Part shown: in pieces, positions 5,009 to 48,575 of the stretch
How the letters are laid out: every line of letters starts with the position of its first letter
Numbering within the stretch: the first letter of the stretch is position 1
DNA from: Glaucostegus cemiculus
Lineage: Eukaryota
Direction: 5' to 3'
DNA: 64,000 bases
Assembly: GCA_976551045.1 (NCBI GenBank)
Contig: CDPCPM010000033.1
Location: 13,392,001 to 13,456,000 of the forward strand
Program-made: the position numbers and the translations under genes
Notes under the pieces: generated by a model
What the model was told of the DNA's origin: nothing
The model's database searches: none
Seen by the model: the letters and a program-made list of their open reading frames with translations, nothing else

Positions 5009-5144
5009 TCCACCTCCTCTGTGTGAATCTGAAGTGTATTTGTTTCTTCCCTTTTCCAGTTCTGATGAAAGGTAATTGATCCAAAAAACTGACTCTTTCT
5101 GTCTCCACAGATGTTGCCTGACCTACTGAAGGTTTCTAGCATTT
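5009..5144 (+). mobile_element. Penelope-type mini-element with degenerate hammerhead ribozyme core; 9-bp TSD
   Basis: agtt-CTGATGA-aagg..tcc-(a)aaaac followed by tctccacagatgttgcctgacctactga. Flanked by actaccatt at 5000-5008 and 5145-5153. Confidence 0.65.
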
Positions 5145-6068
5145 ACTACCATTGTTATATATAGTTGGGTCCAGTCAAGCTCCTTTTGAGTGGCCAACTC
5201 CAGTTCTAATCACAGTAACCTTTAGAGTACAGAGGAGTTTTAATTCTTCTAGAAACAAGGAACGACACATTTATAAATTCACAAATCTTTAGTGGGCATC
5301 ATATAAATAAATGTCTGGCCAGAGGCATTTTATCTGAATGCTGGTGAGATGTTCAAAGAGCCTGTGCACATCCATCTGCTTACCAGCTCCCTTTGCTTTA
5401 AAAACGTAAAATGAACCTAATGTTAACAGTGGTGAGTTTTTATTTAGCTGCATATATATTACAATTTTTAATTTTTCCTTTCTAAATGGGATTAACTTTA
5501 TTGCACCTTTAGTTGTGTTACTTAGATTGGCTGTGCTAGGTACTGTAAAATTCTGTGATGTACATGCAGGTATGATATGTTATTTTCAAAGAAATTTTCA
5601 AATTTGGGAGACTGTATTTCAATATTCTCCAAGGTATTTTTTTTACATAATAAATTCATGGAAATCAATGACGTTACACCCAACTTACTTTTTGTTTTGC
5701 TACACTGAGGCTGGATCTTTCCACTGAACTGAATGGAAATTTGTAATTAACAGCCAAGGGCTCATTTCCTGAAATCCTCTGAGTTTAAATGTTTATGTTT
5801 AGAACAACTTGCGTTTCCTGTTGAGGGTTTGGATCACATTCTCTAAAGCATTCAGCAATCATTTTGTTTTGATTCTGAAAATATTTTGTTTTTTTTCCAT
5901 TGAATTGAACTTTTAAGTCTAATTGCGTTAAGTAAATTATCATATTTATCTTCCTCTCATCAACAGTAAACTGTAAATCCTTGTGCACAACCATGATACT
6001 GAAAATAAACTAAGACTTTTTTTCCATACAGAACTAGACATTAGACTGAATTATTTAGTAGAATAATA

Positions 6069-16830: not shown

Positions 16831-17789
16831 ATTAAGAAACCCGATTTCACCCTTAATTGATGTGCTGAATGGATGGAAGAACTAGAGCTAAAGCCCAATT
16901 TGGCGACACTCAAAAATTTGTTAGCATATACTGGACCCTGGCTGCTTCACTCCATAGCTACCTTCCATACACTTACTGACCTCCTTTCTGTTCCCTCCTC
17001 CTCTCCACCCTTTCTCTGCATTTTAAAAATGCTTCATCTCTAAGTTTTTGGTTTAATCCTGTTTCTCTCTCATGGATGTTGTCTGATCTGCTGATTATTT
17101 CTAACATTTTGGATTTTTTTTATGGCTACACTTCCTGAATGCTTCTCCTGCCTCCTTGCCTCCCTAGCAGACCCTTATGCTATTTTGCATTTAACTGCAT
17201 TTAAATTGCATTGGTAGAAATTTAACAGTAATTATTCAGGTTATCAACAATACCTTAACTGTACTTTTTATGTACACAATATGAGATAAACAAGTCACAG
17301 GGAAAAAACACTTAAATTATTTTAGCAGAAAAATACTGAACATGTTTGAATAATGTTTCTCTTAATATTAATGCAGTGGTCACCCGCTATTTTTAATTAT
17401 TGCAACAAGAGGAATGTTGTCATTGTCTCTAAGATATAATTTATGAAGAATGAATTTGTAGAAGGAATTTTTAATGCAATCATTAAAGCCAATGCAAGAG
17501 GTAGAAGGTGGGACATTTGATTGCAAGGATATTGTAAAAAGGACAAAGAGCAGAACTGCCTGAAAAGAGTAGCACAGTTTCCAGGGTTGAAAGACTCCCT
17601 TCAATGCCATTCAATTCTTAAAGAATAAATTTAAATTGAAGTGAATAGAGAGTAAGACTGAGCTGGGCATAAAATGGACATTTTAATTTTCTATTAGGAA
17701 ATTTGGTGAAAATAATGTCCCTTGTCAATTCTTTAGCCACTTCAGAGGCAGTCGATACCTGTTAGAGGAAATACTTCAAATACTTCCTC

Positions 17790-25065: not shown

Positions 25066-25655
25066 GATTCCTGTGTTCCCTTTAACTCCTCTTGCATTCT
25101 CCTTAACACACTGGGGCTCCAGTTCCCATGCTCCTTTGAACATGCTGGACTCTGGTTCCAGCGCTTCCATTAACCAACCAGTGCCCCATTTCCACATTCC
25201 CTTTAAACTTAGAGGCCTAAATTCCTGTGCTCCCTTTAATATCACCAGGCCCAGTTTCCTACACTCTATTAAACACACATGGGCTCCATTTCCTGCACTC
25301 CCTCCGAACTTACCAGGGCCTTGATTCCTGTGCTCCCTTCACTGGACCCCTGATTTCTGTGGATCCTTATAATTCTCCTGGTTCTGTTTCCTGCAGTCCC
25401 TTGAAGTGCACCAGGTTCTGTTTCCTAAACTCCTTTTAAACTCACTGCGGTCCCATTTCTCACGATCCCGTTAAACTGATCAGGGTCCTCTTTCCTGCCC
25501 TCCCTCATTCCCTTTAAATTTACCAGGATCCCTGTTTCCTTTAACGCCGTTGCTTCTGTTTCCTGCATTCCCTTGAAATTCACTGAATTCTGTTTCTTGC
25601 GCTCCCTTTAAATTCATTGGGGCCCTATTTCCCAGGTTCTCTTTAACATTATCAG
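25066..25655. repeat. Diverged ~34-35 bp minisatellite (~17 units)
   Basis: Recurrent unit ~TTTCCTGCACTCCCTTTAAACTCACCAGGNCCCA. Confidence 0.8.
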
Positions 25656-26130
25656 ATCTGCTAGGAGATTTATTGTACTACTTGTAACATCAAAAAGAAT
25701 AAGGAAAAGTGTGTTGGAGTATTGATAGGAATATCATTAACAGTCTGGAAAAGCTGCCAGCCTGGAGCTACCAAAGTCCTAAGCATATTGGATTAATGTA
25801 ATATTACTGTATACAGTTTAGTTAATTGTACCTCACTGTTGAAGTATAAGTGGGTGTAAACAAAAGGGACACAGTATACTTTATCTATCTTTGTATCTAT
25901 GTGACACTCTGTGGTTCTATTTTACAGTGTTATTTTGTAATTGTATAACACTGACAACAACACAGGCTGTAGCAGATGGCTAAAAGCTTCAAATGTAGAG
26001 AGGTCAAGTACTTTACCTCTTTTGCATATATAGTCCCTTAATCCACCTGTGAAAATATTTCAGAATACTAGAGAAATAGTACATTGTCTTTATCTCCTAG
26101 CTCATTTTACTGGCATTTAGGGAGACATAC

Positions 26131-26287
26131 CTTTCCTTTAGCAATAGCTTTACAAGTGATCCTGATGATCAGATATGACCAGAAGCTATGCAGCAGCTGA
26201 AGCAACAAAAGGAGCAAGTTGAAGACCCACCATGATGGATAAGGACCAACAATCTCCCAACTTTCAAACAAGGTGGTATTTAATATC
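26131..26287 (-). CDS. CERS6: CERS6 exon, 157 nt ((W)[52 protein letters not shown])
   Basis: tttgtttcag acceptor and gtatgt donor. The first G completes the TG|G Trp codon from the previous exon. TLC-domain sequence. Confidence 0.95.
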
Positions 26288-26889
26288 CTGAAACAAAATA
26301 AAAATATTCATCAGAGAATGCAGTTTTTACAATCTGGAATGCAGATTAAAATGAATCAAATATTAATTTTGGAGAAATATCAAATGTATCATTGCTTTAA
26401 AGAATATGTTATTGATACGCTTCCCAGTTCACACAAGAAGCACATCAATAAAACATGTAGCCTTTAGCAGTAAATTGTTTAATCGCCTGTTTCTCAAAGA
26501 ATCAATACTAGCAATGCTTTTGTTTTACAAAATATAAATTACTTTTATCTCCTTACTTTGTCTAATCCATTTTCTTCACTAACTGAACTCCCCGAGGCTT
26601 ACATCTAGTGAAAGCAAGTTACAAAATGCATTTAACAACTTTGCAATGAAATTCATTATCCCAGTGTTTCTCAGTTGTGGCCTCAAAGGAAAGCAATTAT
26701 TTAAAATTAGTTCAAAATGCAAATGAGATGCAGTAAGGCAAATTATGGTCAATTTATCTGAGATTGTTCAATTTGATTATATCTGATGTGTAAATCTTTT
26801 CTCTGAAACATGCTCAATGGTAAATGGATGCATTGTTATTAATCAAATTAGTTGTTTTGAAAACAAATAGCACAATACTCTATAATTCA

Positions 26890-27290
26890 ACATTACCAAA
26901 TGGATCAGAGTCAGAGCAGCTTCAAGGATGGCCCCGAATCGACCATATCTCTATTGCCTCCATCTTCACTGGACCTATTCTTCACCCCTTCTTCATTCAG
27001 ATACTGTCTTTTGAATACATAGTTCAAAGACATGGAGCCAGTCTCCAAATGTACAGTACTGACACTCACCTCTACCAGTCTCAGCCCTTTCACCGATTCT
27101 GTGTTGTCACAAGCCGTGCTCAGATAAACCAAAACATACTCAAGCTAAGCACACAGGAGAATGATATCACTGTGCCTGCAACTCATGTTTTTACCCTTTT
27201 TACTGATTTCTCTTGCCTCCAGCCACTACTTGCAACATCAGCATCCCACTTAACCTCAGTCTGAGCTTTTAACTGTACATTTCACATAAA
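26890..27290 (+). mobile_element. L2-clade LINE RT relic (probably continuing at ~29690-29880 and 31690-32030)
   Basis: GPILHPFFIQI..IVQRHGASLQMYSTDTHLY resembles L2 'GPLLF..HG.SFHMYADDTQLY'. Confidence 0.55.
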
Positions 27291-27294
27291 GCAA

Positions 27295-27690
27295 TAGAGT
27301 CGTAGAGCCATACAGCACAGAAACAGGCTCTTCACCACCCCCACCCCCCCCCACAATATCCATGCTGACCATCAAGTGCCTATCTATACTAATTCCATTC
27401 ACCAGCACTTGGTCCATGGCCTTCTATGAGATGGCGATTCAAGTGCTTGTCTGGATACTTAACTGTTGTTGTACCTACCTATGCTGCCAACTTCAGGGAT
27501 GCTTGGACTTGCACAGTGAAGTACCTTTATTCCTCAATACTCCTTAAGGTCCTACCATTGATTATGTATGTCCTATCCTTATTAGTCCTCCTAAAGTGCA
27601 TCAACTTGCACATCAGGAATAAACTCCATCTGCCATTGCTCTGCCCATTTAATCAATATCATTCTGTAGCCTTTGTTTATCCTCCTCACT
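27295..27690 (-). mobile_element. CR1 3' fragment with internal deletion
   Basis: KWAEQWQMEF ORF and tail tacagcacagaaacaggc. Confidence 0.75.
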
Positions 27691-28992
27691 GAAAAGAGGT
27701 GAGTGTCTGTGCCTGAGCAGGTGAGTTTCACTTGCAGAGTCGGGAGCTGGAACGAGATTTGGAGAGGGACGTTTGAAAAGAGGTGAGACTCTGTGCCTGA
27801 GCTTGAGAGTTTCACATTGCAATAGTCTAAATGAGGCACATTTGCTGTTTATTACCAGCTGATTGGCTTATTGTTACCTGATTGGCTTATCAACGGCAGC
27901 AAATAGAGGTAAGGCAAGTAAATGTGATTAACCTGGGAATTACAGACCAGTGAGTTTTACTTCAGTGGCGGGCAAATTACTGGAGAAGATTCTTAGAGCC
28001 AGGATTTATGGGCATTTAGAGAAGCATAGGCTGATTAGGGACAGTCAGCATGGCTCTATGAGGGGCAGGTCATGCCTCAAGAGCCTGACTGAACACTAAG
28101 GATGTGACAAAGCACACCCATGAAGGAAGAACAATGGATGTGGTGTACATGGATTTTAGTTAGGCATTTGATCAGGTTCCTCATGGAAGTCTTATTTAGA
28201 AAATCAGGAGGCATGGGATCCAGGGAAACTTGGTTCAACCATATAAGGCATATAGTGGTGGTAGATGGAGTGTATTCTCCCTGGAGGTTGGTGACCAGGG
28301 GTGTTCCGCAGGGATCTGTTCTGGGACTGGATCTGCTCTTTGTGATTCTTAAAAATGATTTGGATGAGGATGTGGAAGGGTGGGTTAGTAAGTTTGCTGA
28401 TGATACAAAGGTTGGTGGTGTTGTGGATAGTGTAGAAGGTTGCTGTAGATTACAACAAGATAGTGATAGAATGCAGAGCTGGGCTGAGAAGTGGCAGATG
28501 GAGTTCAACCCAGATAATAAGTGACGTGATACACTTTAAGAGATCGAATTCAAAGGCAGAGTACAAGGTTAATGGCAGGACTCTTAGCAGTGTGGAGGAA
28601 CAGAGGGATCTTGGGGTCCACGTCCATAGATCCCTCAAGGTAGCCACGCAAGTCGATAGGGTTGTTAAGAAGACAGTCAGAGACTTTTTCCCAGTGTGTA
28701 AATAGCTAACTTGATGCAACATGATTTTAAGGTGATTGGAAGAAAGTACAAGGGGGATGTCGGGGCACGTTATCTTACACAGTGGTCAGTGTGTGGAATG
28801 CACCATTGGCAGAGGTTGTGGGGGCAGATACATTAGGGACATTCAAGAGACTCTTCAATAGACACATGAATGATAGAAAGATAGGGGTTATGTGGGAGTG
28901 AAGGGTTAGATAGATCTTAGAGCAGGATAAAATGTCGGCACAACATTGTGGGCTGAAGGGCCTGTACTGTGCTGTAGTGTGCTATGTTCTAT
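27691..28992 (+). mobile_element. Internally deleted CR1: 5'UTR (tandem ~84-bp monomers) joined to mid-RT, second deletion near 28672, intact 3' tail
   Basis: [36 protein letters not shown]. 3' gggcctgtactgtgctg..ctatgttcta. 5' part homologous to the minus strand of 12700-12860. Confidence 0.85.
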
Positions 28993-29009
28993 CAACAACG
29001 CTATCTCTT

Positions 29010-29340
29010 TTCTATTCTCTCTTCTTCCCCCCCCCCTCCCATCGGGCAAAAGATCCAAACGCCCGAAAGCACGTACCATCAGGCTCAAGGACAGCTTCTA
29101 TCCCACTGTTATAAGACTATTGAACGGTCCCCTAGAACAGTAAAATGGACTCTTGTCCTCCCAATCTACTTTGTCATGGCCTTGCACCTTACTGTCTGTC
29201 AGCACTGCACTTTCTCTGTAACACTTTATTCTGCATTCTGTTATTGTTTTCCCCTGTACTACCTCAATACACTGATGTGATGAAATGATCTCTATGGATG
29301 GCAAGCAAAACAAAGTTTTTCAATGTACCTCAGTACATTT
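29010..29340 (+). mobile_element. Rex1 LINE 3' fragment
   Basis: PLPSGKR..ARTIRLKDSFYPTVIRLLN plus a 3'UTR matching 61600-61950. Confidence 0.85.
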
Positions 29341-29349
29341 AGATAAAAT

Positions 29350-29470
29350 TTCTTCATTAGTCACATGTAGACCGAAACACACTGTGAAGTGCATCTTTCT
29401 GGAAGCAGCCCATAAGTGTCACCACACTTCCAGCGCCAACAATAGTATGCCCACAACTTCCAAACCAGTG
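29350..29470 (-). mobile_element. 3' part of the 390-680 SINE family
   Basis: Reverse complement of ggaagttgtgggcat..gtgacactt..ggctgc..gtgtgtttcg..catgtgactaat. Confidence 0.7.
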
Positions 29471-29879
29471 TGTCTTTGACAATAATAAACCATTTTATCA
29501 ATTTAATCATTGTTTGTGTCATCTGGAAACTACTATAACAGTGAGGGTCCCAGCACAGATCCATGGGGTACATCTCCCATCACAGGTTTCCAAACACAAA
29601 ACCAACCCTCCATCCTCACCCTCTGTCTCCTAGTACTACGTCTTTCCACATCCTTTGCATCACATTAACTGTCTATGTCCTGCAACTTTGCTCATATCCA
29701 CTCCAAGCTCACTTCACTGCTGCTAAAACTCCCTTTCATACCTTTGTCATCACAACACTAACTTGGCCAGTTTCCCATTCACAGTAAACATCAGTTCATC
29801 TAAAACTCAGCTGTTCATCTTTTATCCTGCTCCAGGTCCCAGTCAGCCTTCAACTCCCACCTTGCAGCTTCCACTTGCA

Positions 29880-31690
29880 TAGTTTTTATAGATATGTAAA
29901 AAGGAAAAGTCAGACAATGGCAAGTGTGGGTCCTGACAGTCAGAGGAAGGAGAATTTCTAAATTGGAAATAAGGAAATGACAGAAGATTTAACAACTCAG
30001 GGAAGACAATACATAAAACCTGTTGGAAAAATTAGAGAATCAGGGCTCAAGTGAGAATGAGGACTGAAGGGACTAAGTATTAGACAAAAAAATGAGAGAA
30101 TTTAGTAAGCCTGAAAACTGATAAATTCTAAGGAGACAACTGATTTAGCATTATTATTGTTGTAGAGTCAGACAGCATGGAAACAGGCATATCCCAAAAT
30201 TTTGAAAGAGGAGGCTTTAGGGATAGTGAATGCACTGATTATCAACTTTCAAAGTTGTATAGATTCTCGGATTGTTCCTGTAGATTACAGCGTAGCAAAT
30301 ATGACCCCATTATTTAAGAACAGAGGGAGAGAGAAAATGGGGAGCTACCAACCTATTAGCCCAATATCAATAGTAGGAAAAATGCTGGAATCTACAATGT
30401 AGGATGCAATTTAAAAAAAACACTTTGCAAAGAATAATAGGATGGAGTAGAACCAAAATAGATTCATGAAAGGAAAATCAGCTTCAACTAAATTACTTAA
30501 GTTGTTTGCGGGTGTATCCATTAAATAGATAAGGAGAGCCAAAAGGTGTGGTGTTTTCGGATTTTCTGAATTGATGCGTTAAGACCTGGTACAGAAGATT
30601 CAACAACAAGTTCAGAAAACATGGAATTAAGGGTAATGTGCTAACATGGACAAGGAATTGATTATCAGACAGATAACAAAGAGTGGGAATACATGGATTG
30701 TTTTCAGGTCAGCAGGCCGTGATTATTGGGATACTGCAGGAGTCTGTGCCTGGATCCCAGCTATTCAGACTAATTTCCATTTGGGGACCAAATGTCATAT
30801 TTCCAAGTTCATTAGTGATACTAAACAAGGTGGGATTTTGAGTACAGAAGAGAATGTATGGAGGCTTCAAGGATATATAGATAAGCTGAGCAACTGGGCA
30901 ATTGGAATACAATGTGAGAAAATGTAAGGTTACCAACTTTGGTGTACACAACAGAAATGTAGTTTATGACATTCAGTGTTTTAAGATGGTGAGAAACTGG
31001 GTGATGCTCAAATTCAAAGGGGCCAGGCGTACTTGTACATAAGTCACTGAAAGTCAACATACAGGTGCAGCAAGTGGTTATGAGGGCAAATGGTATGTTA
31101 GCATTAATTATGTGAGGATTTTAATATAAGAACGAGAAGTTTTATTGCAATTGTATAGGCCTTTGGTGAGCCCACACCTGGAATATTGTGCACAGATTTG
31201 GTCTCCTCACCTGAGAAAGAATGTAGTTGCCATGGAAGCAGTGCAGTTAAGGTTCACTCGACTGGTTCCAGGGGCAGCGGGTTTGCAGTGTAAGGAGAGA
31301 TAGAGCAGACTGGGACTGTACTCTTTGGAGTTTAGAAGAATGAAAGGGGATCCCATCGAAACACAAAATTCTTAAAGAGCCTGGCAAGCTCAATGTGTGG
31401 AGAGTGTTAAAACTGGCTGAGGAGTCCAGGACAAGGGTTGCTCTTTCAGAATAAGAGTAAGGCCAATTAGAACTGAGGTGAGGAGAAACTTCTTCACTCA
31501 GAGGGTGGTGAAGCTTTCAAATGATCTATTCCAGCAGGCTATAGAGGTTCAGTCATTGTGTTCATTCAAAACAGATTGATAGATATCCAAATCAAGGGAC
31601 ATGGGATAGTGGTGGAGAATGGTGTTGAGATAAGAGATCAGTGGAGCGAATTCAGAGTGCTCAAACTCCTGCTACTATTACTTAGGTTCT
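29880..31690 (+). mobile_element. Old CR1 ORF2 and 3' end
   Basis: ANMTPLFKNRGREKMGSYQPIS, ISKFISDTK, ggtgagcccacacctggaatattgtg (VRPHLEYC). Confidence 0.8.
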
Positions 31691-32569
31691 TTCAAAACCC
31701 TTCAGAAGCTCACCCACCTTACTTACTAATAACTTCTTTAATTTTTAGTCAGGTGTCCTGTTCTGCCAACCTTTGGTTTTCATTCTTGCGGAGCCTGGAT
31801 CTACTGAGGTTTCATGCTTGGAATTCCCTCTCTACTTGGCCACATGCCCAATGCCATCTCTTTCTTTAAGACCTTTCTTTAAATTAATCTCTTTTGCTAA
31901 ACTTTTGGTTTCCCTCCCCCATGCCCTCCCCCGCATCTCCTTTGTTTTCTCGGCATTTATTTTTATCTGCTGTAGGCATTGTGAATTATCTTGAGTTCCA
32001 GCTTACCAGTTAAATGTAAGCCGCTATTACAGACTTCAGCATTGACATTATAGAACCACTACATTTTTCTCCATTCTTCCCATCTGACACTACAGATTTT
32101 AAACTGATTTATAACATTCAGTTTTTTTAAAACTTTAAAATGAATAAACTGAGCATTCCATCTATGCAATGAGCTTTTCAGTTACTAATGTGGTATGTTT
32201 TTATGGTTCACGGCAATATATGCCATAAAAATAGAACTGTTTTATTCAGTAATCATAATCTAAGGAATGTCAAGGAAGCAGTGAAGAGTAGCCCAGTAGG
32301 TAAGTGTGATTCATCTTTATTGAACTGAGAGAAGCAGGAGCAGGAATCCTTCCCTAGACTCCACAACTATAAACCACTTACTGGTGTACTGGATCAGCAA
32401 ATATTCCCCATTTTCTCTAAGAATGAAACTCCCACCAACAGGGTTATTTATAACAATGGTCTGCCAATAGCCTGGGATGGATGCTTTTCACTGGCAGTGA
32501 GCTACGCACTATTTAATGCACTTCCTGCCAACATTTTCTGTTGTGAGTTCCTCTGCAGAGTCAATTTTC

Positions 32570-32825
32570 ATACAACATCTTTCATGACCCCTGGATATCC
32601 CAAAGCATTTTGGAGACAATTAAGTACTTTTAAAACCTAGTCACTGTTGTGACATGGGAGGAAGGCATCTAACTTTTGCACAGCGAGCTCCCTGAAAAAA
32701 CTGTGGGATAACAACCACATAATCAATCTTTATTGATATCAACTGAAATACTGACAGGACTCCTGAGATAATGGTTCTATTCACCTCCACTGAGAGAGCA
32801 GATAAGGCCTCAGGTTAACATACAG
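32570..32825 (-). mobile_element. Deu-domain SINE (SacSINE1/AmnSINE-like), ancient
   Basis: tagtcactgttgt..ttgcacagcgagctccc..ctccactgagagagcagataaggcctcaggttaac resembles the Deu-domain consensus as recalled. Confidence 0.6.
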
Positions 32826-33384
32826 ACAAATTGGTTATATTTTTACCTCCATGTTGAAGCATATCAGAAGGAATTAGTTGTCAATCACTATCAGATGTAG
32901 CCTTTGAAGGAAGTTTGTAACAGGTATTAGTGAGCTATTAACTAATGCCATAATCTATTCAGTCCAATTTGTGTGTATGTTATTGACTCTTCAGATGATC
33001 TTCAATACACTTTAGTTTCACATAGCTGCTTCACTATGGAAACAAATGTAGATAAATACTTGCAAAGTATGTTTTGGATACTTCTGTAATTCTGTTTAGT
33101 CACAATTTTGTCTTAGTGGGAACAGATGTATGAACATGACATAAATGATAAACTTTCAGTGGGTTTATGAATTCTGAAAATGATTACAACTGGTAGGAAT
33201 GAGGGTATTTCTTAAATGTCTGGAAAGAAAGACAATTCAAGGGATTTAAAACATCTGGTGTATCTGCTTAGTTTTCACAATGTGATTCAAAACTAATAAC
33301 TTGAATTTACTTTAAAAATCACTTTAATCATAACTACTTCTCCATTATCAGTTTATTAAGGTGAAAGGAGTTATTAAAATATAT

Positions 33385-33480
33385 TGTCCTGATACAGGGT
33401 TTCAACCTGAAATGTTGACAGTTCCTTCTGTCCACAGATGCTGCTCAACCAGCTGACTTCCTCAAGCAGATTATTTGTTG
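33385..33480 (+). mobile_element. 96-bp Penelope-type mini-element with hammerhead relic; 13-bp TSD
   Basis: tgtc-CTGATAC-aggg-tttcaa-cct-GAAATGTT-gaca followed by tccacagatgctgctcaaccagctga. tattaaaatatat at 33372-33384 and 33481-33493. Confidence 0.7.
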
Positions 33481-35958
33481 TATTAAAATATATAACCTAC
33501 CTAAGGTAATAACAATGCTACAGATACAAGTTCCACATATATTTACCTATTTATATTGAAGTTTGTACATTTCTGCAGCAGCATTGCTTGTAAGAAGTAA
33601 AATAAAGTCACAAATGATATTTGATTAACTTTTAAAAAGTTACAGAAATGGAAGATAGAAACTGCCATCCATCTTTCTGAACATGATGTCAGCTCCACTT
33701 GCTCACAGCATGTGATGCTTACCAACATTCCAAGAGTTTGGGTGTGAGCGAACCAGATAGTGTTCACCATTAAAGACTAGCTAGCAGATTTGCCAGGGGA
33801 AAGCATTTGACTTCCCTGCACCCTATTTACACACTTAATACTTTCCAATGACTCTTATCCCTAAAGTTTATCAGTAACATGGACATAACTATCATTAAAT
33901 TAACCAGAATTTATTTCAAAGAGGAAAATAAACACAATCAGACTTTAGCTAAACTACTCTCATACTGTGGTATTATATGTTGTGTATGTAAATGTATTGA
34001 TGTCACATGACATCAATCACTATAGCAAACAGCTGGATGTGGGGCCTATCGGACAAACTTGTGAGTTGAACTATTTAAATAATTTCAGCAACTCTCTGCC
34101 CACCACCCCCATCCAATTCCTCCCAACTTCCCTACCTCTGATATCCTCTTTCTTGCAGCAACTATATGTGTCAGGGACCTTCCCTTCCATTCTCTGATGC
34201 CTGAAAAACTGCTCCTGTCTGCTGAGCATGCAGTAAAAATGCAAATATTGATGGTTCCCATTCACAACCACAGACTTGATTTGCATTGATCCCTCCATCT
34301 ATATTACTGTGGTAACCACACAACCTGGCCTTTAAGCAGGCGTAACTTTTGTCCTGAACAGCATGTTTGTCAGATCTGGTGTCTTTTCCACCAGTTTCTG
34401 GTGGGTGTGAGTGTTGGTAAATGCTTTGGGGGTTTCTTGCTCAACTGTCAGAGGCCTGCCTTGCACCTCCCATTCCCTGAGGTCTTTTCCAACATTAGGA
34501 ATCCGTGAAGCACCATAAAACCATACACAGAAAAATCCTTAACAACAAATATCAATATTTTTGCTGACAAGGCTTTAAGGATATATACATATATATAAAA
34601 CTATTTTACATAATTAGTTTAAAATGTGTATTGCTATAACAGATCTTGAAATGCCATTTTAAAAATAAGCTATCATGTTTTAAATTTAAATATTTAAAGT
34701 TGCTGGATTTTAATAGAAATAAATATAGATTATTTGCCCTAAAATTCATCCTTAAAATGCTACTCACCCTACAAAGTTTATAAGGTGCGAAAGGTTTGAA
34801 ATTGTATTCAAACTGTAAAGAAGATGTTGTACCCTTTATACATGTTTGATGAAATCACTGCATGATGCAGATTATATAAAATTGCTGGCAATAAGTTACA
34901 TGACAGGAAATGAATTCAACACTTCTAGAAAATGTCATAAATGTCAGCAGAGCCAAATGGTGAATTGCTGCTTTAAACTCTTTGACAGCTAGTTGTTGTT
35001 CTTTATGGTATTTACCATACCATTATACACAACAATCCATTTTATAGAAAGCTATTTCAGTAACTATTCAGTAAATATCCCAAAATCACAACAGTGCAAA
35101 GCTAAAATTATCTGCCACATACAATTCTTATACGATTGTCTTATATTCACAATTGTTTGTGACAGAAAAGTAGTAGTTATTAACCATTAGCAATCTCTGC
35201 CTGTCTTTGACTTATTAATTGACCTGTATTAATCTGGATGTATTGGTGCTGAAGTTGATCTGTGCTTTGGCCATCCCTTTGAGCGTAAAATTAAAGTTCT
35301 GGGTGAAATCCATTACCTAGTCTGCACCAGTGGCAAAGCTGCTGTCATATTGGTTCACACTGCTTAAAATCAATGTTGGCTCAATTTAAATGTTCAAAAC
35401 AGGGTCCTGCTCCTATTTTAGGACCCATCAGCAAATTTTGTGAAAACTGCGTGTATCAGACATCTTGCATGTTTGACTAATTTCTTCCACTTTTACTTTG
35501 GCCAGCTCTGAGATCCTTAAACGGGAAAAAAGGTCTAAACTGTACTTGTCCACTTTTTCAGTCAGGAGAAGCATTGGCGAGAGTTGTTCCAAATTAAGGA
35601 TGGAATCCTAAACTGCCTGAGGAAAGACTGAATGGAGGAAGAAGAGGCAAAGCCACGGAAAGGGCAAATGTATTTAAAGATTTCACACATTGTTGCGAAG
35701 TTATAGTTTATAGCTTAATTTGTATATTTTTTACAGCATGAAGATATTTTACATCAAAAATTACAAACCTTACATGACTGAATTGTTCTCAAAAATACTA
35801 GGGTTAATTAGTAAATTAATGCAATCGGTCAAAAAGAGCAAGTCAAGTGAGATGTAGATGAATCGCCAACATGCGCTGTACAGGATAATTCAAAGCCATT
35901 GATGATTCTCACTCCCAAATGCATAGAGGATCCTTTGATGTCTTCAAATGCTAATTTT

Positions 35959-36012
35959 CATTGATGAAATGGGACTTAAACTTCTTTAAGTTTAAGTCCC
36001 ATTTCATCAATG
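35959..36012. repeat. Perfect 25-bp inverted repeat with 4-nt loop
   Basis: cattgatgaaatgggacttaaactt-cttt-aagtttaagtcccatttcatcaatg. Confidence 0.95.
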
Positions 36013-37611
36013 TGGGTTTCATATTTGCTCAAATCTCTATTTGTTTACACTGATTTTTACTTGTTTTATGCTCAGGGGTCCAGTAATGAGATTTTCACGA
36101 CACCACCATAAGATAGTTAGTTAAACTTTTGCAAAACATTTTGAGCCTAAACAGTGTGACTTCAACTCGGAGCAATACAATGAGGGGATGATGGCCACAA
36201 TGTGCCTGCTTCCAGACCAATGATCATCAACAGGTGAACTCCTGGCACCTTAGGGCATCTGCTGCAGCTCTCCCTCCATGTGAAGGCAAGAAGTGGGCTG
36301 GATCCCCAGGATGAACCAACTATCGATCAGTGCTGAGTTAGGGGTTGGTGGAGGCAGGTTTTATGGAAACATCAAAAGTATGGGCCCAAGGTTACTAACA
36401 CTGTATTCCCACAAAAAGAGAGAGGTGGTGGGTGGAGCTTGTTGTGGAAGCCAACCAAACGAACTCCAATGTTTAACAGCAAATCCCAAAAACAGCAAAA
36501 GCTCAGTGGGCCAAAGTATCTCCTGTAACAGTGGTGCTGTACGAAAAAATATTAAGTAAGTGAAGGAGGAGAAAGGAAATATAATACAGAAGTTATCTTT
36601 TCCTGGAATGTGAGTACTAAACTTGAAAGGCAACACTCCAAGCCACTCTGAAAATCACATAAAAGCCAAGTGTTTTTTCAAAAATCCAGCTGTTCATGCT
36701 TTCAGCTCAGAGGATAAACGTTTCTCACTACCATCCATTACATTTCTTCCACATTCACCCTCAAAAAGCATTGTCCTTAGTAGTGTTAGCTTTGTCTGGG
36801 AATTCCTTAAGTTTAAGAATAAACCTGGAAGGGTGGCTGAGGCAGGGATAGGACTTCAAAGATTCTTCCACCTATTGTGCCTGTGGCAGCTACTTAAAAG
36901 TGTCCTTTGAAATTGCACAGTTCCAGTAAGAGACCCACTCAGGCTGTTCATTGGTGCTTTGGCTGGGTCCCAGTAGCCAAGTCTAGGCTACTCCTAGTGC
37001 TTGGACCTGACATCAGGTGGGACTGAGGCTCAACATTATTAGGGACCCTAAGACCAGGCAAACAGTGGAGGTGGCAAGTCCTTATTTCATCTTCAGCTGT
37101 AGCCTCCACAGCACTTGTCCAAAGGGCTGTGACTATCCTGGGGATTCCTGGTTCATCTCCACAGCTCTGCCGGTGAAATGGGAAAATTAACGTCCCATAT
37201 CAATGCTACCTAGGACAGATAACTTTTCCTTCAGGTACAGGAATCCCACACAATATGGGACAGTTGTTAGTCCAATTATTTTCATCACATATTTTAAGTT
37301 GTAGCCTTTGCAGGAGGTAAATTTTAATGATCTAGGATGAATACATTACCAATCATGGTTACCATTAATGTGGACATTTCATTGACCTGAACAATGCATA
37401 GAACAGATACATTCCTGTTGGCTGCTTCAACATTCTGTGTCAAATTTGTTCCAGCGACAAAGAAAGGCAATAATAAAGCAAAGAAAAAAGTGAAGAAAAG
37501 AAATAGTAAAAAAACACAATCGAGTTCAGATGGGAGAATGGCTATAACTTTTCTTCAATGTGGGAAACATTTCAAGGTGTTTTAACGTGACACAAACAGG
37601 CAGAACTATCA

Positions 37612-37860
37612 ACGGTGGTTCAATGGATAGCATTCCCACCTCTGAACCAGAATTCCACTCTGGAGACATGACCGCAAGCCTCTAAGCAGACACACTAATG
37701 CAGTACTGAGGGAATGCTGTTTGATTTTTGTCCTTCAGTTGAGATGAAATTGAGGTTGCATTTTCTTTCCAGGAAGAAACAAAAGGTTCCATGATTTTAT
37801 CTTGAAAAAGTGCAGTGAAATTATCCCGGTGCCCTCACCAATATATTTCCTCAACCTGTG
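37612..37860 (+). mobile_element. Deu-domain tRNA SINE, ancient
   Basis: tRNA-like head gtggttcaatggatagca, then tgcagtactgagggaatgctg and cccggtgccctcaccaatatatttcctcaacc. Confidence 0.6.
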
Positions 37861-37899
37861 CTGGAACCATAATTTGACAAGATACTTAAAAGTGATTGA

Positions 37900-38525
37900 A
37901 GTATCGAATGCTGAGCCTAATAGTTAGAGGGCTGGAGGGCAAAAGGATAAAGTTATCCTGATGGCTAAATGGGATTAAAAGCAAAATTGCCACAGCTGTA
38001 CAAAGACCTGGTTAAACTGCTACGAGTTCCTGAAGGATATACTAGCTGTGAATGGTGTGCAGCGTAGAATTCCCGGAATGATACCTGATGCGTATTTTCT
38101 CCTCATAATTTAATCAATGGATAACATTATAAAAAATTCTAGCTATGAAGGAGAGCTGATAGGGTAGCTAAAGATAAATTATTGCTGCAGCTGGGTAGCC
38201 CAAGATGAGAAGGCACCATCAAAACTTGGAGCAGGGCTTTATAAGAATCAGGTTAGGAAATATTTCTGTATACAAAGAATACTTATAACTCTTCCAAAAA
38301 TGGCAATTGATATGAGGTCAACCGTAATTTGAAATTGACAAGTTTTTGATGACAAGGGTAAAATGTTATAAAGCAATGGAGAAACACAGCACAGAAATAG
38401 GACCTTCACCCTACCATGTCCATGCCATAATATGTGGGCAAAGATGCAATAAGTAAGGTGACACATCAGCTGTGAACTCATCGAGGTTTGAGGGATTAAA
38501 TGGTCTCTTACTGTTCCTATAATCA
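37900..38525 (+). mobile_element. Ancient CR1 3' fragment
   Basis: Degraded RT C-terminus and tail gagggattaaatggtctcttactgttcctat. Confidence 0.55.
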
Positions 38526-38823
38526 ATATCACTTAAACAAGATTGCTGTTTGCAGAAATGTACCATGAGCAAATTCCTATTGTGTCCTCTACATGTGGCT
38601 ATGCCTGAAAAATATTTCATTCACTGTAGAGAAGTTTGAGGCAACTCAAAAGTGTGAAAAATGCAGCATAAATACTTGTCTTTTTCAAGGTATCTGTTAA
38701 ATTAGGTTGTCCAATTAAATATGCAGTTTTCCAAAAGGTCATTGCATTTTGGCATGCTTCTATTAGTAAAATAATAAAGTTGCTGTGAAATATATTGAGG
38801 TATTAGGTTAATTGTTTACTCAC

Positions 38824-38930
38824 CATATTGGGTAAAGACCAAGCCTTGTACTTATGAAGACCAAGCTAAACATTACAAACAGAAGGTCACACAGTCTTTG
38901 ACATTTGGCATAGTTTGCCATCTTAGCTGC
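38824..38930 (-). CDS. CERS6: CERS6 exon, 107 nt ([36 protein letters not shown])
   Basis: taatttgcag acceptor and gtgagt donor. Phase 0 start, ends in TG (phase 2). Confidence 0.95.
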
Positions 38931-39431
38931 CTGCAAATTAAAAAAAACACTGGTTTTGGATTTTCAATATCTGACTAATATTATTAAGTCTTTAACTTGC
39001 TCCTCTCCTTAAGAACAAGTAGATCAAAAGTGACACAAGAGTTCATTAATCTGTGCCTAGTCACAAATAATATTATAGTACCAAGATCATTAAATGCATC
39101 AAATGCCTTGAGGTGAGTATGTTTCTCATTTAATTATAATCTGTGGATTTAGCTCACAAACACACAATTACTAACATGGCAAGAAAACATTTAGGTTCAG
39201 AAAAATGGAAATAATGTGGATGAAATAAGCAGATAAACTATGAAGCAAGCTTGTACATAAACACATAAGTAAATTGCATATTCAACAAATGACAGATTGC
39301 TTAATCTATGAGTCTTTATATTCACTGCACAGAATAAGTAATTTACACTGATCTTAGAAAATATACAGTGAAAGTTACTTATTCTATGGAGTTTTTTCCT
39401 GAGGGGATTATTTCAGACTATGTTTACTTTA

Positions 39432-39690
39432 AACTCTTTAGCCAGAGGGGTGGTGAATTTATGGAATTCCTTGCCACAGAGAGCAGTGAAGGCCAGATCA
39501 TTGGAGATAATCAAGAAGGAGATAGATAGATATCTAACTGGTCAAGGTATCAAGGGATATGGAGATAAGGCTGGAATTTGGGGTTAGAATAAGTTTTTCT
39601 CCTCCCTTTTTCCTCACCCCCCCTTCCCTTTGGAACAGACTCGATGGGCCGAGTGGCCTACTTCTGCTCCCTTGTATTGTGATCTTGTGG
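39432..39690 (+). mobile_element. CR1 3' end
   Basis: cagaggggtggtgaatttatggaattccttgccacag..gatgggccgagtggcctacttctgctcc. Confidence 0.8.
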
Positions 39691-40539
39691 TTATCTGTAA
39701 ATAAACAATTAAAATAATCCCCATCAATCATATTCTTTCTGAGACCTTGTATGCTTGTTTTGCAATGACTTTCTGCACTTGTATCATTACTGACCTCTTA
39801 CTGAAGCTGCAGGAATTGTGAATTCCAGCTCTGAAAAAGAGCACAGCTGAGCTGGTCCCCCAACCATAGCACTCCTTTTACTTAGTCAACTATGTTTTTG
39901 TTTGAATATAATGAAAAGGAAATTGTTTCAGTTAACCTTGATATTTTAAATTCTTTAAACCTGGGGAGTAATGTTCATAGCATGAAATAAGAACATTTTT
40001 TTCTTTAATACTCAGTATCTGTCAAGGCCTTCCAGGTTAGATACAGCATGTGCTTGAACCAGAGTGAACCTCTGTCAATCTATCTTATTCTGATCCAAAA
40101 CAGGACCTCCACTAAACTTTCCATTTTTAATATCATTCATTACTATAACTAGTGTGTTATGTCATGGGATATTATATTCATTATGACTTTATGCTGTAAA
40201 ACTGTTCATTTTTTTTGTTTTCTTTCAGATAACACACAAAGATTACTCTGGGATGTACTTGAACTCAAAAATGTAGGATAGACAGTGTGTTAATCTGTTT
40301 TGCCAACAAGACCCCTTGCAGCATTTTTTAAATGAATCCTGGTTCTGAATACTTTTATTAAAAATATTCAATGTGCCAAATCATACTCATTATATTTGCC
40401 AAAAACAATTTCTAAAACATGCTCATAAATAAATCTTGACCATCTGGATCCTCTTGATGCAGTTTTGTTATTTCTTAATATACTCAATGGAAATTCTGCT
40501 TCCCAGCTAACCAGAATTGGACATACAAGATTCTCTCAC

Positions 40540-40640
40540 TGGAAACTTAGCTACACATATTTGGAAGGCTGCAAGTTTGATTCCTGGCCTGAACTGAGCC
40601 AGCTGATCTCAGCTGGGTGATGGCTGGAGTGGCCTCTATA
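40540..40640 (+). mobile_element. Possible LF-SINE-like relic
   Basis: gtttgattcctggcctgaactgagccagctgatctcagctggg resembles the LF-SINE motif GCTGAGTTAGCTGATCTCAGC as recalled. Confidence 0.4.
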
Positions 40641-41250
40641 CATACAGCTGCATTACAACCAGGGTTCCTGTTCCTACTTTTTCTGCTTTATGTGCACTTG
40701 TGCATGTCAATATGGGGTCAATATCAGAATATAGTTGTCATACATTGTTTAGCATTATGCATGAAAAATGCCATATTAGGCAAAGACAAACATTGTCTGA
40801 CCAAGCACTCAAAGGCTTCAGAATAAGAGGAAGGGAAAACAATGTTGTGGGAAAAGTGAAAGACGAAATTCTAATTACTTTCTTTCTTAGTCTGATTAAC
40901 AACATTAATCTGGCCAATTTCTTATATTAGATAATTCTTCAGGGTGAATGTCAAGCAAGGCTAGGGGGTTACTCACTGGGAGGAAGCTTATTAACAGTAT
41001 AGGAGGTTTGGAAGGCAGACAGTAATAATGCAAAAGGGCTTATGTAAATAGAAAGAGGTAAACAAAACTCATTAGTGGAAACATAACTATGTTTTTGTGA
41101 TTTTTCCCTCTGCCAATTCACAAAATATTATTAGTATGGATCTGGTAGTAAGAAGACGATTTTTGTTTACATAGTGATATGTGTGATAATGCCCAGTTCC
41201 CAGTTGCAATGTCGTAAGGACTTATTAAAGGTAATGAACACTTTCCTTAC

Positions 41251-43622: not shown

Positions 43623-43856
43623 TGAAGCAGCCAGCAGGGTGCGACTTAAAAGAACATGAGGACACGGAGACTCGATCGAGCATGTTTTTAATAACTTACC
43701 AAAAGCCGCGCATATCCCGAACTACAAAAAAATGGCCGGCGGAAGTGACGTCATACTCCTGCCGGAAGTCCCGCCTTCCGGCACTATCGCGGGAACCTGC
43801 ACATTTCCCCGCGATGGCCGACGGCGTTTCAGATCCCGACATTGTGAGTCGCTACA
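43623..43856 (-). repeat. 3' LTR (234 bp)
   Basis: Direct repeat of 47624-47858 (about 19 differences counted by eye, mostly CpG transitions). Preceded on the minus strand by a G-rich PPT (plus ccacccccccca at 43857-43868). Confidence 0.95.
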
Positions 43857-46800
43857 CCACCCCCCCCAGAAACGCCCAGCGGAGTCGCGGGGCCATCAAC
43901 CCGATTGCCCAGCTTGGGAGGCCTACCCCGCCGTCGTGGCGAAGGCACCCTGACCGGGTGTGCAATGTCCAGATGTGCCGGCTTCAGGCGGTCCACTGTG
44001 AAAGTCTGCTCACGACCCTCAACCTCGATGACATATGTTGAACCACTGCGCTGGACCACCCAGAAAGGCCCCTCGTACGGCTTCTGCAGGGGCGACCCAT
44101 GTCTTCCCCGGCGGATGAAAACGTACTCACAGCCCTGGAGGTCCTTCGGAATGAAAGAAGGCACTGTGCCGTGCCTGGAGGCCGGGATCAGTGCCAAGGT
44201 CCCCACCTTGGCCCGCAGCTTCGCTAACACTTCCGCCGGAGTCCCTGCTGGGTCCTGAGTCCCTGGTACAAACTCGCTCGGTACCGTGAGGGGGGAACCA
44301 TAGACCAGCTCGGCTGAGGAGGTGCCCAAATCTTCCTTGGGGGCCGTAAGGATGCCCAGCAGGACCCAGGGGAGCTCGTCTGTCCAGTTAGGTCCCTGCA
44401 TGTGAGCCATCACGACGGACTTGAGGTGCCGGTGGAAACGCTCCACCAAACCATTGGCCTGCGGGTGGTATGCCGTGGTGTGATGCAGGTGTGAACCCAG
44501 GAGCTGCGCCAGTGCCGTCCACAAGCCGGACGTGAACTGCGCCTCTTGGTCGGAGGTAATGTCCGTCAGGAGGCCAAACCAGGCAATCCAGTGGGCAATG
44601 AGGGCTCTGGCACAGGACACGGTGGACGTGTCTGCCAGCGGCACTGCCTCTGGCCACCTGGTGAACCTGTCCACCACAGTGAAAATGTACCTGGCGCCCT
44701 GGGAAACTGGCAGTGGTCCAACGATGTCCACGTGAATGTGCTGGAACCTGCCAAGCGTTGGCTGAAAATGCTGGAGGGGAGCCTTCACGTGCCGCTGGAC
44801 CTTGGCCGCCTGACATTGCACGCAGGTTCTGGCCCAGTGCCCCACCTGCTTGCGTAGACCATGCCATACGAATTTTTCTGCCACCATCCTGATAGTCGCC
44901 CTGATGGACGGGTGGGCCAGGCCATGCAGGGCGTCGAAAAACCTGTCGTCTCCACGCTGCTGGCACCACCGGACGGGGTCTGCCAGTAGACGTGTCACAC
45001 AGGAGCCGGATCGCCGTAGGGCTAACAGGAACATCTTCCAGCCAGAGTCCCGAAAGCGCGGTGCGGTATGCCGGGATCTCATCGTCTGCCTGCTGCGCTT
45101 GCGCCAGCGCCGTGTTGTCGACGCCCGTGGCTGGGGTGGTCGCTGAATGGATGTGGGGGTGGGACAGCATGTCGGCGACCACATTGCTCTTCCCAGCGAT
45201 GTGGCGGATGTCGGTGGTAAATTCCGAAATGAAGGAGAGGTGCAGTTGCTGCCGAGCCGACCACGGGTCCGACGTCTTTGCCAGGGCAAACATGAGGGGC
45301 TTGTGGTCCATGTAGATGGTAAAGTACCTCCCCTCAAGGAAATAACGGAAATGGCGGACAGCCAGGTAAAGAGCCAGCAGCTCCCTATCAAAAACGCTGT
45401 ACCTGACCTCTGGCGGCCGCAAATGTCGGTTGAAAAAAGCGAGCGGTCTCCACTGGCCCTCAACGAGTTGTTCCAAGACCCCACCGACCGCCGTGTTGGA
45501 AGCGTCGACAGTGAGTGCTGTGGGGACGTCGACTCTTGGGTGCACCAGAAGTGTTGCCTCCTTGGCCAGTGCCTCCTTAGCCCGATCGAAAGCTGCCGAG
45601 GCCTCCGCGTCCCAAACAACATCCTTGGCCTTGCCGGCCATGAGTCCGAACAAGGGCCGCATGATGCGTGCTGCTGCGGGCACAAAACGGTGGTAGAAGT
45701 TCACCATTCCCACGAATTCTTGCAGGCCCTTGACCGTGTAGGGCTTGGGAAATTGGAGGACGGCCTGCACCTTGTCGGGTAGCGGGGCGGCGCCATGCTG
45801 GTTCACCCTGTGGCCCAAGAAGTCGATCTCCCGCAACCCGAATTGGCACTTCGCCAAGTTGATCACCAACACGTGGTCGCTCAGGCGCTGGCAGAGCTGA
45901 CGGAGATGAGCTGAGTGCTCCTTGCGCGACTTGCTGGCTACCAGGATGTCATCCAGGTACACAAAAGTGAAATCGAGGCCTCTGCTCACCGAGTCCATTA
46001 GCCGTTGAAAAGTCTGGGCGGCGTTCTTTAGGCCGAAAGGCATTCGGAGGAACTCGAACAGCCCAAAGGGGGTGATGAGGGCTGTTTTAGGCACGTCATC
46101 GGGGTGAACAGTGATCTGATGGTATCCCTGGACCAGGTCAATCCTAGAGAAAATGGTCGCCCCATGGAGGTTCGCTGTGAAGTCCTGGATGTGGGACACA
46201 GGGTACCTGTCGGCAGTCGTGGCATCATTGAGTCTCCTGTAGTCTCTGCAGGGTCTCCAGCCCCCCGCTGCTTTGGGCACCATGTGGAGCGGGGATGCCC
46301 ATGGGCTGTCGGAACGGCGGATGATGCCCAACTCCTCCATCCTGCGAAACTCCTCCTTGGTGAGGCGGAGCTTGTCGGGCGGGAGCCTGCGGGCACGGGC
46401 ATGTAGCGGAGGTCCCTGTGTGGTGATGTGGTGCTGCACGCCGTGCTTGGGGACTGCAGCGGAAAATTGCAGGGTGTTGTTGGAGAGTGGAGAGTGCAAC
46501 AGAGTCAAGGTGGGGGGCAGGTGACCGGGCCTTCCCGAGCTGGTAGCTTTGGAAATTCTCAGCATGGACCAGACGCCGGCCCTTCAGATCGACCAGCAAG
46601 CGGTTGGCGCGCAGGAAATGTGCCCCTAGCAGTGGCTGCGATACCGCTGCTACAGTGAAAGTCCAGGTAAACGAACTGGTCCCAAAACGTAACGGGATGG
46701 TGCGCAGGCCGTAGGTGCGGATGGTAGAGCCGTTCGCAGCGGTGAGTTCAGGGCCGTTGACCGCGTTGCGGGTACCCATGTTGGAGGGGGGAAGGACGCT

Positions 46801-46920
46801 GATTTTGGCCCCCGTATCCACCAGGAAACGCCGCCCAGTGAGCCGGTCCCAAAGGAAGAGTAGGCTGTCTCACTGGCCAGCCGTCGAAGCCACTAACGAC
46901 GGCCAGCCTTGGCGTTTCCC
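43829..46920 (-). pseudogene. Gypsy pol (protease, RT, RNase H, integrase), disrupted
   Basis: FLVDTGA; SPWASPLHMV..DYRRLN..MPFGLKNA..YLDD; TVDAS..DRELLA; HHCC (HGLAH..CVQC); HVDIVGP..SDQ..QANGLVER; GPF module. In-frame TGA at 46870-46872, a frameshift/deletion near 46480 and a frameshift near 44940. Confidence 0.93.
46876..46920 (-). other. Programmed -1 ribosomal frameshift signal (gag-pol)
   Basis: G GGA AAC heptamer (46914-46920) in the gag frame, 6-nt spacer, and 11-bp stem GCUGGCCGUCG/CGACGGCUGGC with the gag UAG in the loop. Pol lies in the -1 frame. Confidence 0.8.
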
Positions 46921-47585
46921 GGGAAAGAACACGGCAGCTGGCAGCGGCACGCATTCGTCCCCCACCTCTTGTGGTAGAAACACCACTGCCTTGGGCCTTT
47001 ATCTTTGTCCTCTGCGGGCCCTGACGGTTTGGGTTTTGGAACCCTAGCCGGAGGCTGCGAGGCCGCCGCTATGCAGGCGGAGGCCACTCCTCACCGCCGA
47101 CTGCACCAAATGACATCCGCTGTGGCCGTGAGGGCACGCGGGTCGCTGAAATCTCCGTCGGCGAGGAGGGGCTGCATATCATCCGGGAGTTGCTCGAGGA
47201 ATAGCTGCCGGAACAGGAAACATGGCTGATGGTTGTCCATGAGTGCCAGCATCTTGTCCATCAACTCGGAGGGCTTGTGGTCACCTAGGCCGTCCATATG
47301 GAGGAGCCTCGTGGCTCGGTCGCTGAGGGAAAGGCCGAACGTGCGGATGAGGAGAGCCTTGATTCGGACGTACCTGTCCTCCGTCGGTGGCTGGCTTAGG
47401 AAATCAATGATGCGACCGGCCGTGTCCTGGTCGAGGGCACTGACCACATAGTAATACTTCGTGGCGTCGGCTTCGATGCCCCTGACGCTGAACTGGGCCT
47501 CCGCCTGTTCAAACCAGACTTGAGGCTGCGAGGTCCAGAAAACCGCGAGCTTGAGTGCCATGGCGTTGTGGGAGTCAGTATCCAT
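46893..47585 (-). pseudogene. Gypsy gag with CHCC knuckle; one in-frame TGA at 47091-47093
   Basis: LKLAVFWTSQPQVWFEQAEAQF..LGDHKPSELM..LFLEQLP, continuing in the same frame to WCFYHKRWGTNACRCQLPC. Confidence 0.9.
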
Positions 47586-47607
47586 GATTCCAGATGCCGT
47601 CTGGAAT

Positions 47608-47621
47608 CGTCAGGGTCACCA
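47608..47621 (-). promoter_or_regulatory. Primer-binding site complementary to tRNA-Trp
   Basis: TGGTGACCCTGACG, 2 nt after the 5' LTR, versus the tRNA-Trp complement TGGTGACCCCGACG (one G:U). Confidence 0.85.
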
Positions 47622-47623
47622 AA

Positions 47624-47858
47624 TGTAGCAGCCAGCAGGGTGCGACTTAAAAGAACACAAGGACACGGAGACTTGTTCGAGCACGTTTTTAATAACTTAC
47701 CAAAAGCCGCGCATATCCCGAACTACAAAAAACACGGCCGGCGGAAGTGACGTCATACTCCCGCCAGAAGTCCCGCCTTCCGGCACTATCGCGGGAACTC
47801 GCGCGTTTCCCCGCGACGGCTGATGGCGTTTCAGATCCCGACATCGTGAGTCACTACA
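47624..47858 (-). repeat. 5' LTR (235 bp)
   Basis: tgtag...ctaca termini; direct repeat of 43623-43856. Confidence 0.95.
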
Positions 47859-48411: not shown

Positions 48412-48575
48412 GCAACAAAAGCAGACAACTCTGGAAGCACTCAGCAGGTCATGTAACATTTGTGTAGAGAGCAAAAGAGTTAATGTTTCGGTTCAGTGAC
48501 CTTTCAGCAGATTTGACCTGCCGAAGACTTCCAGCATTTTCTTGTTTTCTTCAGACTTCCAGTATCTGCAGTATG
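48412..48575 (-). mobile_element. Penelope-type mini-element with hammerhead relic and inverted partial copy
   Basis: Minus strand CTGCTGA-aaggt-cactga-acc-GAAACATT-aact. ctggaagcactcagcaggtca and tgacctgccgaagacttccag form inverted arms. Confidence 0.65.

Follow-up and report, generated by a model that had tools for sequence, protein, structure and literature searches.

Introduction

Hammerhead ribozymes have already been reported in the pLTRs of Penelope-like elements (PLEs), as have dispersed single copies, tails and inverted arms (PMC4209133, PMC11167929, PMC8557442, in the portions available). The pLTR arrangement, in which terminal sequence is present at both ends of the element, is likewise described in the accessible sections of PMC8557442 and PMC3846280. 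For a PLE of the anole, the available text of Frangieh et al. (2024; PMC11167929) describes two internal start sites for reverse transcriptase (RT) that define a tail of 30–40 bp. The same text reports AT-rich targets, extension of both DNA strands and the use of uncleaved RNA as the template. We found no paper describing PLE hammerheads in sharks or rays, although a preprint on non-LTR retrozymes lists one chondrichthyan (bioRxiv 10.64898/2026.07.22.740005). The family treated below may already stand in Repbase or Dfam.

Here we describe a hammerhead-bearing insert of 96 bp from Glaucostegus cemiculus, together with the subfamily of genomic copies to which it belongs. The insert lies in a stretch of 64,000 nucleotides that is called the window throughout. 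Taken singly, it is fossil debris within what appears to be an intron. The subfamily as a population, in contrast, bears on two open points concerning PLEs, namely the purpose of the hammerhead and the origin of the inverted ends and the tail.

Results

A 96-bp insert within a target-site duplication

A perfect 13-bp direct repeat (33372–33384 and 33481–33493) flanks 96 bp of sequence (33385–33480). The first-pass annotation of the window had claimed both this duplication and a hammerhead-like motif inside it, and both are present. An exact 13-bp repeat at equal spacing is found at 4 of 63,401 other start points in the window, a rarity that makes a retroposition-type insertion likely. Positions within the element are numbered with the A of AGTC as +1. 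The parts of the locus are as follows.

33372..33384, no strand: left copy of the 13-bp AT-rich target-site duplication, read from the sequence (chance 4/63,401)
33385, plus strand: junction base T in place of the subfamily's A(+1), from the subfamily alignment
33386..33420, plus strand: decayed minimal type I hammerhead, predicted cut after 33416
33421..33480, plus strand: remainder of the stub, putative part of the 5′ untranslated leader of the element, ending at about +97
33481..33493, no strand: right copy of the target-site duplication, read from the sequence

The focal hammerhead has a 3-bp stem I (GTC/GAC), and its core carries the ancestral A9C change plus a copy-specific G8A change. 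Stem II is of the GGG/CCC type with CpG decay; the "cct" previously assigned to this stem is a product of that decay. Stem III is palindromic and has undergone two CpG decays. The proposal that CpG decay underlies the different palindromes holds, and GAAACATT at 48480 fits an origin from GAAACGTT, but the focal GAAATGTT does not come from GAAACGTT; it equals GAAACGTC after two CpG decays. The 3′ end corresponds to the shorter of two 3′ end points used by the subfamily (about +97). Scanned against Rfam with a cut-off of E ≤ 10, the window gave 10 matches, none of them to a hammerhead family, and the predicted folding of the insert is no more stable than that of shuffled sequences (z −0.32).

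Target-site duplications are present in 3 of 53 solo copies of the subfamily (control 0/53), and in having one the focal copy is untypical. It represents the smallest regular product of the element, spanning +1 or +2 to +96, and would be inert.

Host gene and other copies in the window

Minus-strand reading frames matching the Pfam TLC domain lie on either side of the insert.

26128..26307, minus strand: TLC-domain (ceramide synthase type) exon-containing frame, from Pfam, on the 3′ side of the host intron
38823..38963, minus strand: TLC-domain exon-containing frame, from Pfam, on the 5′ side of the host intron
41379–41251, minus strand: third frame matching the Pfam TLC domain

From the position of these frames, the insert appears to be antisense within an intron of a ceramide-synthase-type gene. 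A motif of this gene type marks 16205–15954 as a likely last exon.

Other repeats are also present. Inside the host gene, the interval 43623–47858 is bounded by two ~235-bp repeats that are 92% alike (43623–43856 and 47624–47858). We take it to be a Gypsy-type LTR element, with minus-strand frames that carry protease-like and RNase H/integrase-like motifs. A long LINE-like repeat occurs at 1508–2763, 8876–10374, 27930–28990, 53864–54614 and 57697–60445, in copies 63–89% alike and partly inverted, and another RT-like frame is located on the minus strand at 11774–10890.

Three further hammerhead-related copies had been noted. They lie near 5058, 48480 and 17060, on the plus, minus and plus strands, the last without a core. 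All three are real, but they belong to a sister subfamily (AGTT type) and not to the focal one. They resemble one another more than the focal insert, and a BLASTN search of the window with 33360–33520 (E ≤ 1) did not find them.

5016..5148, plus strand: sister-subfamily (AGTT type) copy with the GAAACG box destroyed; ends approximate
17052..17115, plus strand: core-less sister-subfamily copy, similarity from about +32, near the predicted cleavage site; ends approximate
48414..48511, minus strand: sister-subfamily copy, main arm of a head-to-head pair, starting at about +4; ends approximate
48514..48575, plus strand: inverted partner arm of the preceding copy; end approximate

The 17052–17115 copy and locus L480 elsewhere in the genome are both AGTT-type copies with similarity from about +32, beside the predicted cut; two cases are too few for enrichment. 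The 5016..5148 copy reaches ~42 nt upstream of stem I and lies beyond the last coding exon of the host gene. Since this copy outside the coding span is damaged too, the damaged cores noted inside the ceramide-synthase gene are no sign of selection.

Compensatory change had also been read from a TGTC/GACA stem I in the focal copy set against AGTT and AACT in the others. The last two motifs do exist, but in separate copies: the one near 5058 has AGTT/GACT and the one near 48480 has AAAT/AACT. In the focal copy the T is the junction base, and the subfamily has AGTC/GACA with a 3-bp stem, so that TGTC/GACA is not part of the covariation between subfamilies.

The insert is a terminal piece of a coding element

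Thirty longer copies of the subfamily were walked upstream, where ~560 nt of pyrimidine-rich sequence is followed by the end of an ORF. Among 30 loci chosen by their RT-thumb/GIY-YIG region, 26 match P0001, a natural RT+GIY-YIG protein of the same genome (Pfam RVT_1 and GIY-YIG). A single alignment runs from the ORF end through the hammerhead in 13 of 30 loci picked by coding sequence, and one locus (L309) has RT, a Cys-containing linker, GIY-YIG and then the hammerhead in order. The coding copies in the focal subfamily are decayed, and the focal stub contains no coding sequence.

The same terminal sequence is also found ahead of the ORF. Three of 30 loci (L343, L351 and L358) share ~260–290 bp beyond +133 (71–75% identity, E 1e-40 to 1e-51). 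An ATG is located at +168 in every one of them, and L343 continues into RT sequence (E 1e-19). The core is of the focal type in L343 and of the sister type in L358; of the stub region, L351 retains no more than the final ~29 nt. Because the stub sequence occurs both at the 3′ end and before the ORF start, it is both 3′ terminus and 5′ leader, as in the pLTR arrangement of PLEs.

Judged from these sequence comparisons, the insert is most simply classed as the decayed end of an old Neptune-type PLE and not as a separate retrozyme. The assignment to Neptune is provisional, being based on the Cys-containing linker and 22–35% identity to P0001. The first-pass annotation had tied a retroposed piece with a minimal hammerhead to PLEs and had postulated a GIY-YIG/RT partner. 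The insert indeed matches the terminal repeat of such an element, and the coding partner is linked to that repeat in cis. A separate family of tiny non-autonomous elements, which it had also proposed, gives way to a terminal piece of the coding element itself.

A young Neptune-type family, recovered by a Pfam GIY-YIG search of the genome, was considered as the parent and rejected: its hammerhead is different, and BLASTN similarity to the focal insert was absent from the 20 loci checked. This family (L072; G000 contigs C72, C361, C64 and C85) is clustered on a few contigs and has frames open to 740 aa, and an intact core with a 5-bp stem I lacking AG. A regular tandem array of the young Neptune type at G000:C4:8736-23205 has periods of ~1354 and 1179 bp and an intact canonical hammerhead. 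On its sequence, this array would be a better candidate for dimer cleavage or retrozyme-like behavior than the focal stub.

Family size

Used as a DNA query, the insert returned 2,413 candidates in the 2.85-Gb genome. Forty of these were scored, and the 39 besides the focal copy have 83–90% identity. A generic canonical-core pattern gave 20,943 matches, compared with 1,317 for a reversed control; this number is an upper bound, as several of the first 30 loci have no stem I or resemble other coding repeats. Patterns specific to the subfamily matched 645 places (core) and 1,394 places (downstream part), with none in controls. Capture–recapture yields roughly 29,000–41,000 arms, an estimate based on only two and three overlaps.

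The ribozyme core of the subfamily

A consensus failing to restore CUGANGA was one of the results that the first-pass annotation counted against its own proposal, and the focal subfamily gives this result. Among copies chosen regardless of their core, the sequence is CUGAUGC instead of CUGAUGA. Position 9 is C in 26 of 29 long copies and in 58 of 67 copies picked by downstream sequence; it is also C in 73 of 89 copies where the search pattern left that site open. The focal subfamily thus departs from the canonical CUGANGA/GAAA/NUH core, which sister families have. Even a core pattern that tolerates CpG decay fits no more than 2 of 90 genome copies. For the 3′ box the ancestral sequence is GAAACGUC; GGG/CCC makes up stem II, and three pairs form stem I. 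A is found at +1 in all 25 long copies aligned there (of 30 long copies in all). CpG sites in the core have decayed in ~40% of copies, as expected of neutral fossils. One AGTT-like copy, L496, also has C at the ninth core position, which could mean that the change has arisen repeatedly or that the copy is a hybrid.

Covariation of the stems, as previously claimed, is seen between subfamilies. Across a set of 18 cores drawn from several subfamilies, pairing is seen in 84% of cells versus 67% after shuffling, a comparison to which no probability is attached because the structure was drawn by hand and the rows are related. In the same cores, 7 of 8 pairs have two-sided change, and 22 cells are changed on both sides versus 7 in shuffled data.

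In the available part of the anole study, a G8C change abolishes cleavage (PMC11167929). By analogy, the loss of G8 very likely leaves the focal copy unable to cleave. A9 is described as conserved in the accessible text of PMC3705267, and a literature search on A9 substitutions in hammerheads gave no usable paper. An A follows the changed site in this subfamily and might take the place of A9.

End points of the copies

End positions were counted in 90 copies selected only on sequence from +45 onward. The 3′ ends are bimodal, with 39 at +88 to +110, 46 at +120 to +133 and 5 elsewhere. The gap between the two end points is ~35 nt, in agreement with the PLE tail. An adjacent inverted arm accompanies 42 of the 90 copies. 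When 5 duplicates are removed from 76 inverted pairs, 66 of the 71 unique pairs combine one short and one long 3′ end (Fisher p 1e-13).

The 5′ ends accumulate at +1/+2, where stem I begins. Of 55 copies that reach +6, 41 stop between −5 and +6, where the stop rate is 0.068 per nt, versus 0.002–0.018 in other bins. Five of the 90 copies end at +32 to +35, around the predicted cut. A pile-up of 5′ ends at the cleavage site, predicted beforehand for a canonical-core family, failed to appear (1/86).

The +1 pile-up differs by family: 41/55 in the A9C subfamily, 7/65 in family 2, 0/24 in family 3, which has many near-identical copies, and 8/14 in the canonical AGTT family, for which 23 loci were kept after 7 of 30 belonging to another family were dropped. 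The pile-up does not track A9C, and A9C as its cause is not supported, as the canonical AGTT family shows the pile-up too. Family differences may reflect how often master copies sat in tandem, because only a second pLTR–ORF junction in an RNA would yield long copies. Back-splicing, or splicing from the ORF end, was rejected as the source of the 5′ edge, because the flanks of short copies do not match it. In family 3, the short 3′ end often enters a long GT repeat (L031, L032, L035, L036, L516, L529, L532 and L538).

Discussion

A proposed origin as run-off cDNA from internal RT start sites

We consider it probable that the insert is a terminal piece of a PLE (+1 to about +96) made by an internal start of RT on the element RNA and run-off at the 5′ end of that RNA. 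In such a scheme, +1 would be the transcription start of the element RNA, and an endonuclease cut in AT-rich genomic DNA would prime the RT. Synthesis would begin at +97 or +133 on uncleaved RNA, with each of the two cut DNA ends primed at one of these points, which would be the counterparts of the two internal start sites of the anole element. The cDNA would then run off at the RNA cap, and repair would leave either a duplication or a head-to-head pair. With neither the promoter upstream nor any RNA past +133, the resulting stub would be a dead end.

Several features of the 5′ edge bear on this proposal. CCAAT at −73, TTTATA at −31 and TCA(+1)GTCC form a promoter-like layout with TATA-like and initiator-like motifs; sister family 2 has TATATA at −31. 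A copied cap would give an extra G before the start. In 10 of 14 informative copies, A(+1) has such a G before it (p 0.0008, a post hoc test); among copies that begin at G(+2) the count is 9 of 21 and not significant (p 0.15). Of the 24 short copies that carry A(+1), 10 agree with the consensus at −1 as well, so either some RNAs started a little farther upstream or the edge is not sharp. The available part of PMC3846280 reports a TATA and an initiator together in a pLTR from a rotifer; a literature search for a TATA-linked start in PLEs found nothing. No RNA run was listed for 25500–34000 of the window, which counts neither way. Against a start site at +1, the pile-up is not general across families, and the same bases can be read as a 3′ splice site.

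Alternative explanations

A 3′ splice site at stem I could set the 5′ edge, if RT copies spliced RNA or stalls at bound splicing factors. All four subfamilies examined have a pyrimidine tract and CAG before stem I, and AG is retained even where the A is unpaired in stem I. The AGTT subfamily has a CTAAC branch motif ~25 nt upstream and no TATA, and the Penelope intron of Drosophila virilis ends at helix I (PMC4209133). A search upstream of 52 short solo copies nevertheless found no exon in common. The few duplication-bearing copies begin 0–2 nt from the repeat. Family 3 has a good acceptor yet no pile-up (0/24), and sister family 2 has no yUnAy match to accompany its TATA-like motif. A start site is favored over a splice acceptor because RT would not halt 1–3 nt past a splice junction, and we judge the splicing explanation unlikely.

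The short copies could instead be a self-propagating non-autonomous family, similar to SINEs or retrozymes, that has an internal promoter and is mobilized in trans. A 5′ start that is fixed in most copies, and a pile-up that varies between families, would suit such a family. There are precedents in the accessible portions of two reports: Penelope of D. virilis has an internal promoter (PMC2377424), and non-LTR retrozymes are proposed to derive from PLE ends (bioRxiv 10.64898/2026.07.22.740005). Against such a family, a comparison of 52 short solo and 30 long copies over 133 nt gave no diagnostic base once CpG columns were set aside. The four window copies include no tandem array, and only scattered direct duplications occur among the genome copies examined. 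Both types of 3′ end and the inverted arms are those of the parent element, and, in the available part of PMC11167929, the anole protein needs RNA beyond the RT start sites, which the stubs lack. We consider independent propagation of the short copies quite improbable.

Ordinary random 5′ truncation, with a pile-up produced by microhomology or alignment artifact, is very improbable and already largely refuted: ~40% of copies (35/90) do end at scattered points in the hammerhead and decay blurs alignment ends, but the stop rate at −5 to +6 is ~4 times that of the next-highest bin and ~10 times that just upstream, and the same method gives no peak in family 2 (peak versus +7 to +30, 41:23 versus 7:20, p 0.001).

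Significance

A broader proposal is tentative, and we give it less than even credence. A subfamily with A9C and a dead or crippled ribozyme may have made tens of thousands of insertions, in which case cleavage would be dispensable for PLE transposition in vivo. Each cut end would prime at a different RT start site, and most cDNAs would run off a cap-bearing 5′ terminus located at the first base of stem I. If true, this would be natural in vivo evidence on the role of hammerhead cleavage in PLE transposition, with the insertions serving as a record of the reaction. The A9C subfamily was amplified beside sisters with canonical cores in one genome, which offers a direct comparison for a cleavage assay. 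For the in vitro PLE system that already exists, the junction counts yield predictions that can be tested.

Comparison with known systems

The element most resembles the EN+ Neptune PLEs, as these are presented in the available sections of PMC8557442 and PMC3846280. Common to both are RT, a Cys-containing linker and, at the C-terminus, a GIY-YIG domain, a pLTR with a hammerhead, frequent 5′ truncation, an inverted 5′ arm, and an optional tail of 30–40 bp at one end only. Unlike those elements, the subfamily here has C at core position 9, and its sharp 5′ end at stem I is absent from those sections.

With minimal type I hammerheads the ribozyme shares a short stem I, an extra base before G10.1, the G10.1–C11.1 pair and a palindromic ACGU in place of stem III, as well as occurrence mostly in single dispersed copies and covariation between families. 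It differs in its CUGAUGC core, compared with CUGANGA, and the focal copy has lost G8 too.

PAc (Poseidon) of Anolis carolinensis, in the accessible portion of PMC11167929, likewise has two RT start points about one tail length apart, downstream from the hammerhead. It also has an AT-rich target and uses both strands, and its insertion in vitro needs no cleavage. The PAc ORF begins inside the hammerhead, whereas here the ATG is at +168. The pairing of short and long arms reported here is a count from genomic copies.

Animal non-LTR retrozymes (PMC7229834 and bioRxiv 10.64898/2026.07.22.740005, in the parts available) are similar in being non-coding, in carrying a type I hammerhead and in their proposed origin from PLE ends. 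They are tandem, with two or more intact ribozymes and circular RNA. In contrast, the insert described here consists of one decayed monomer, identical to a coding element's end, and the copies in the window are single or head-to-head.
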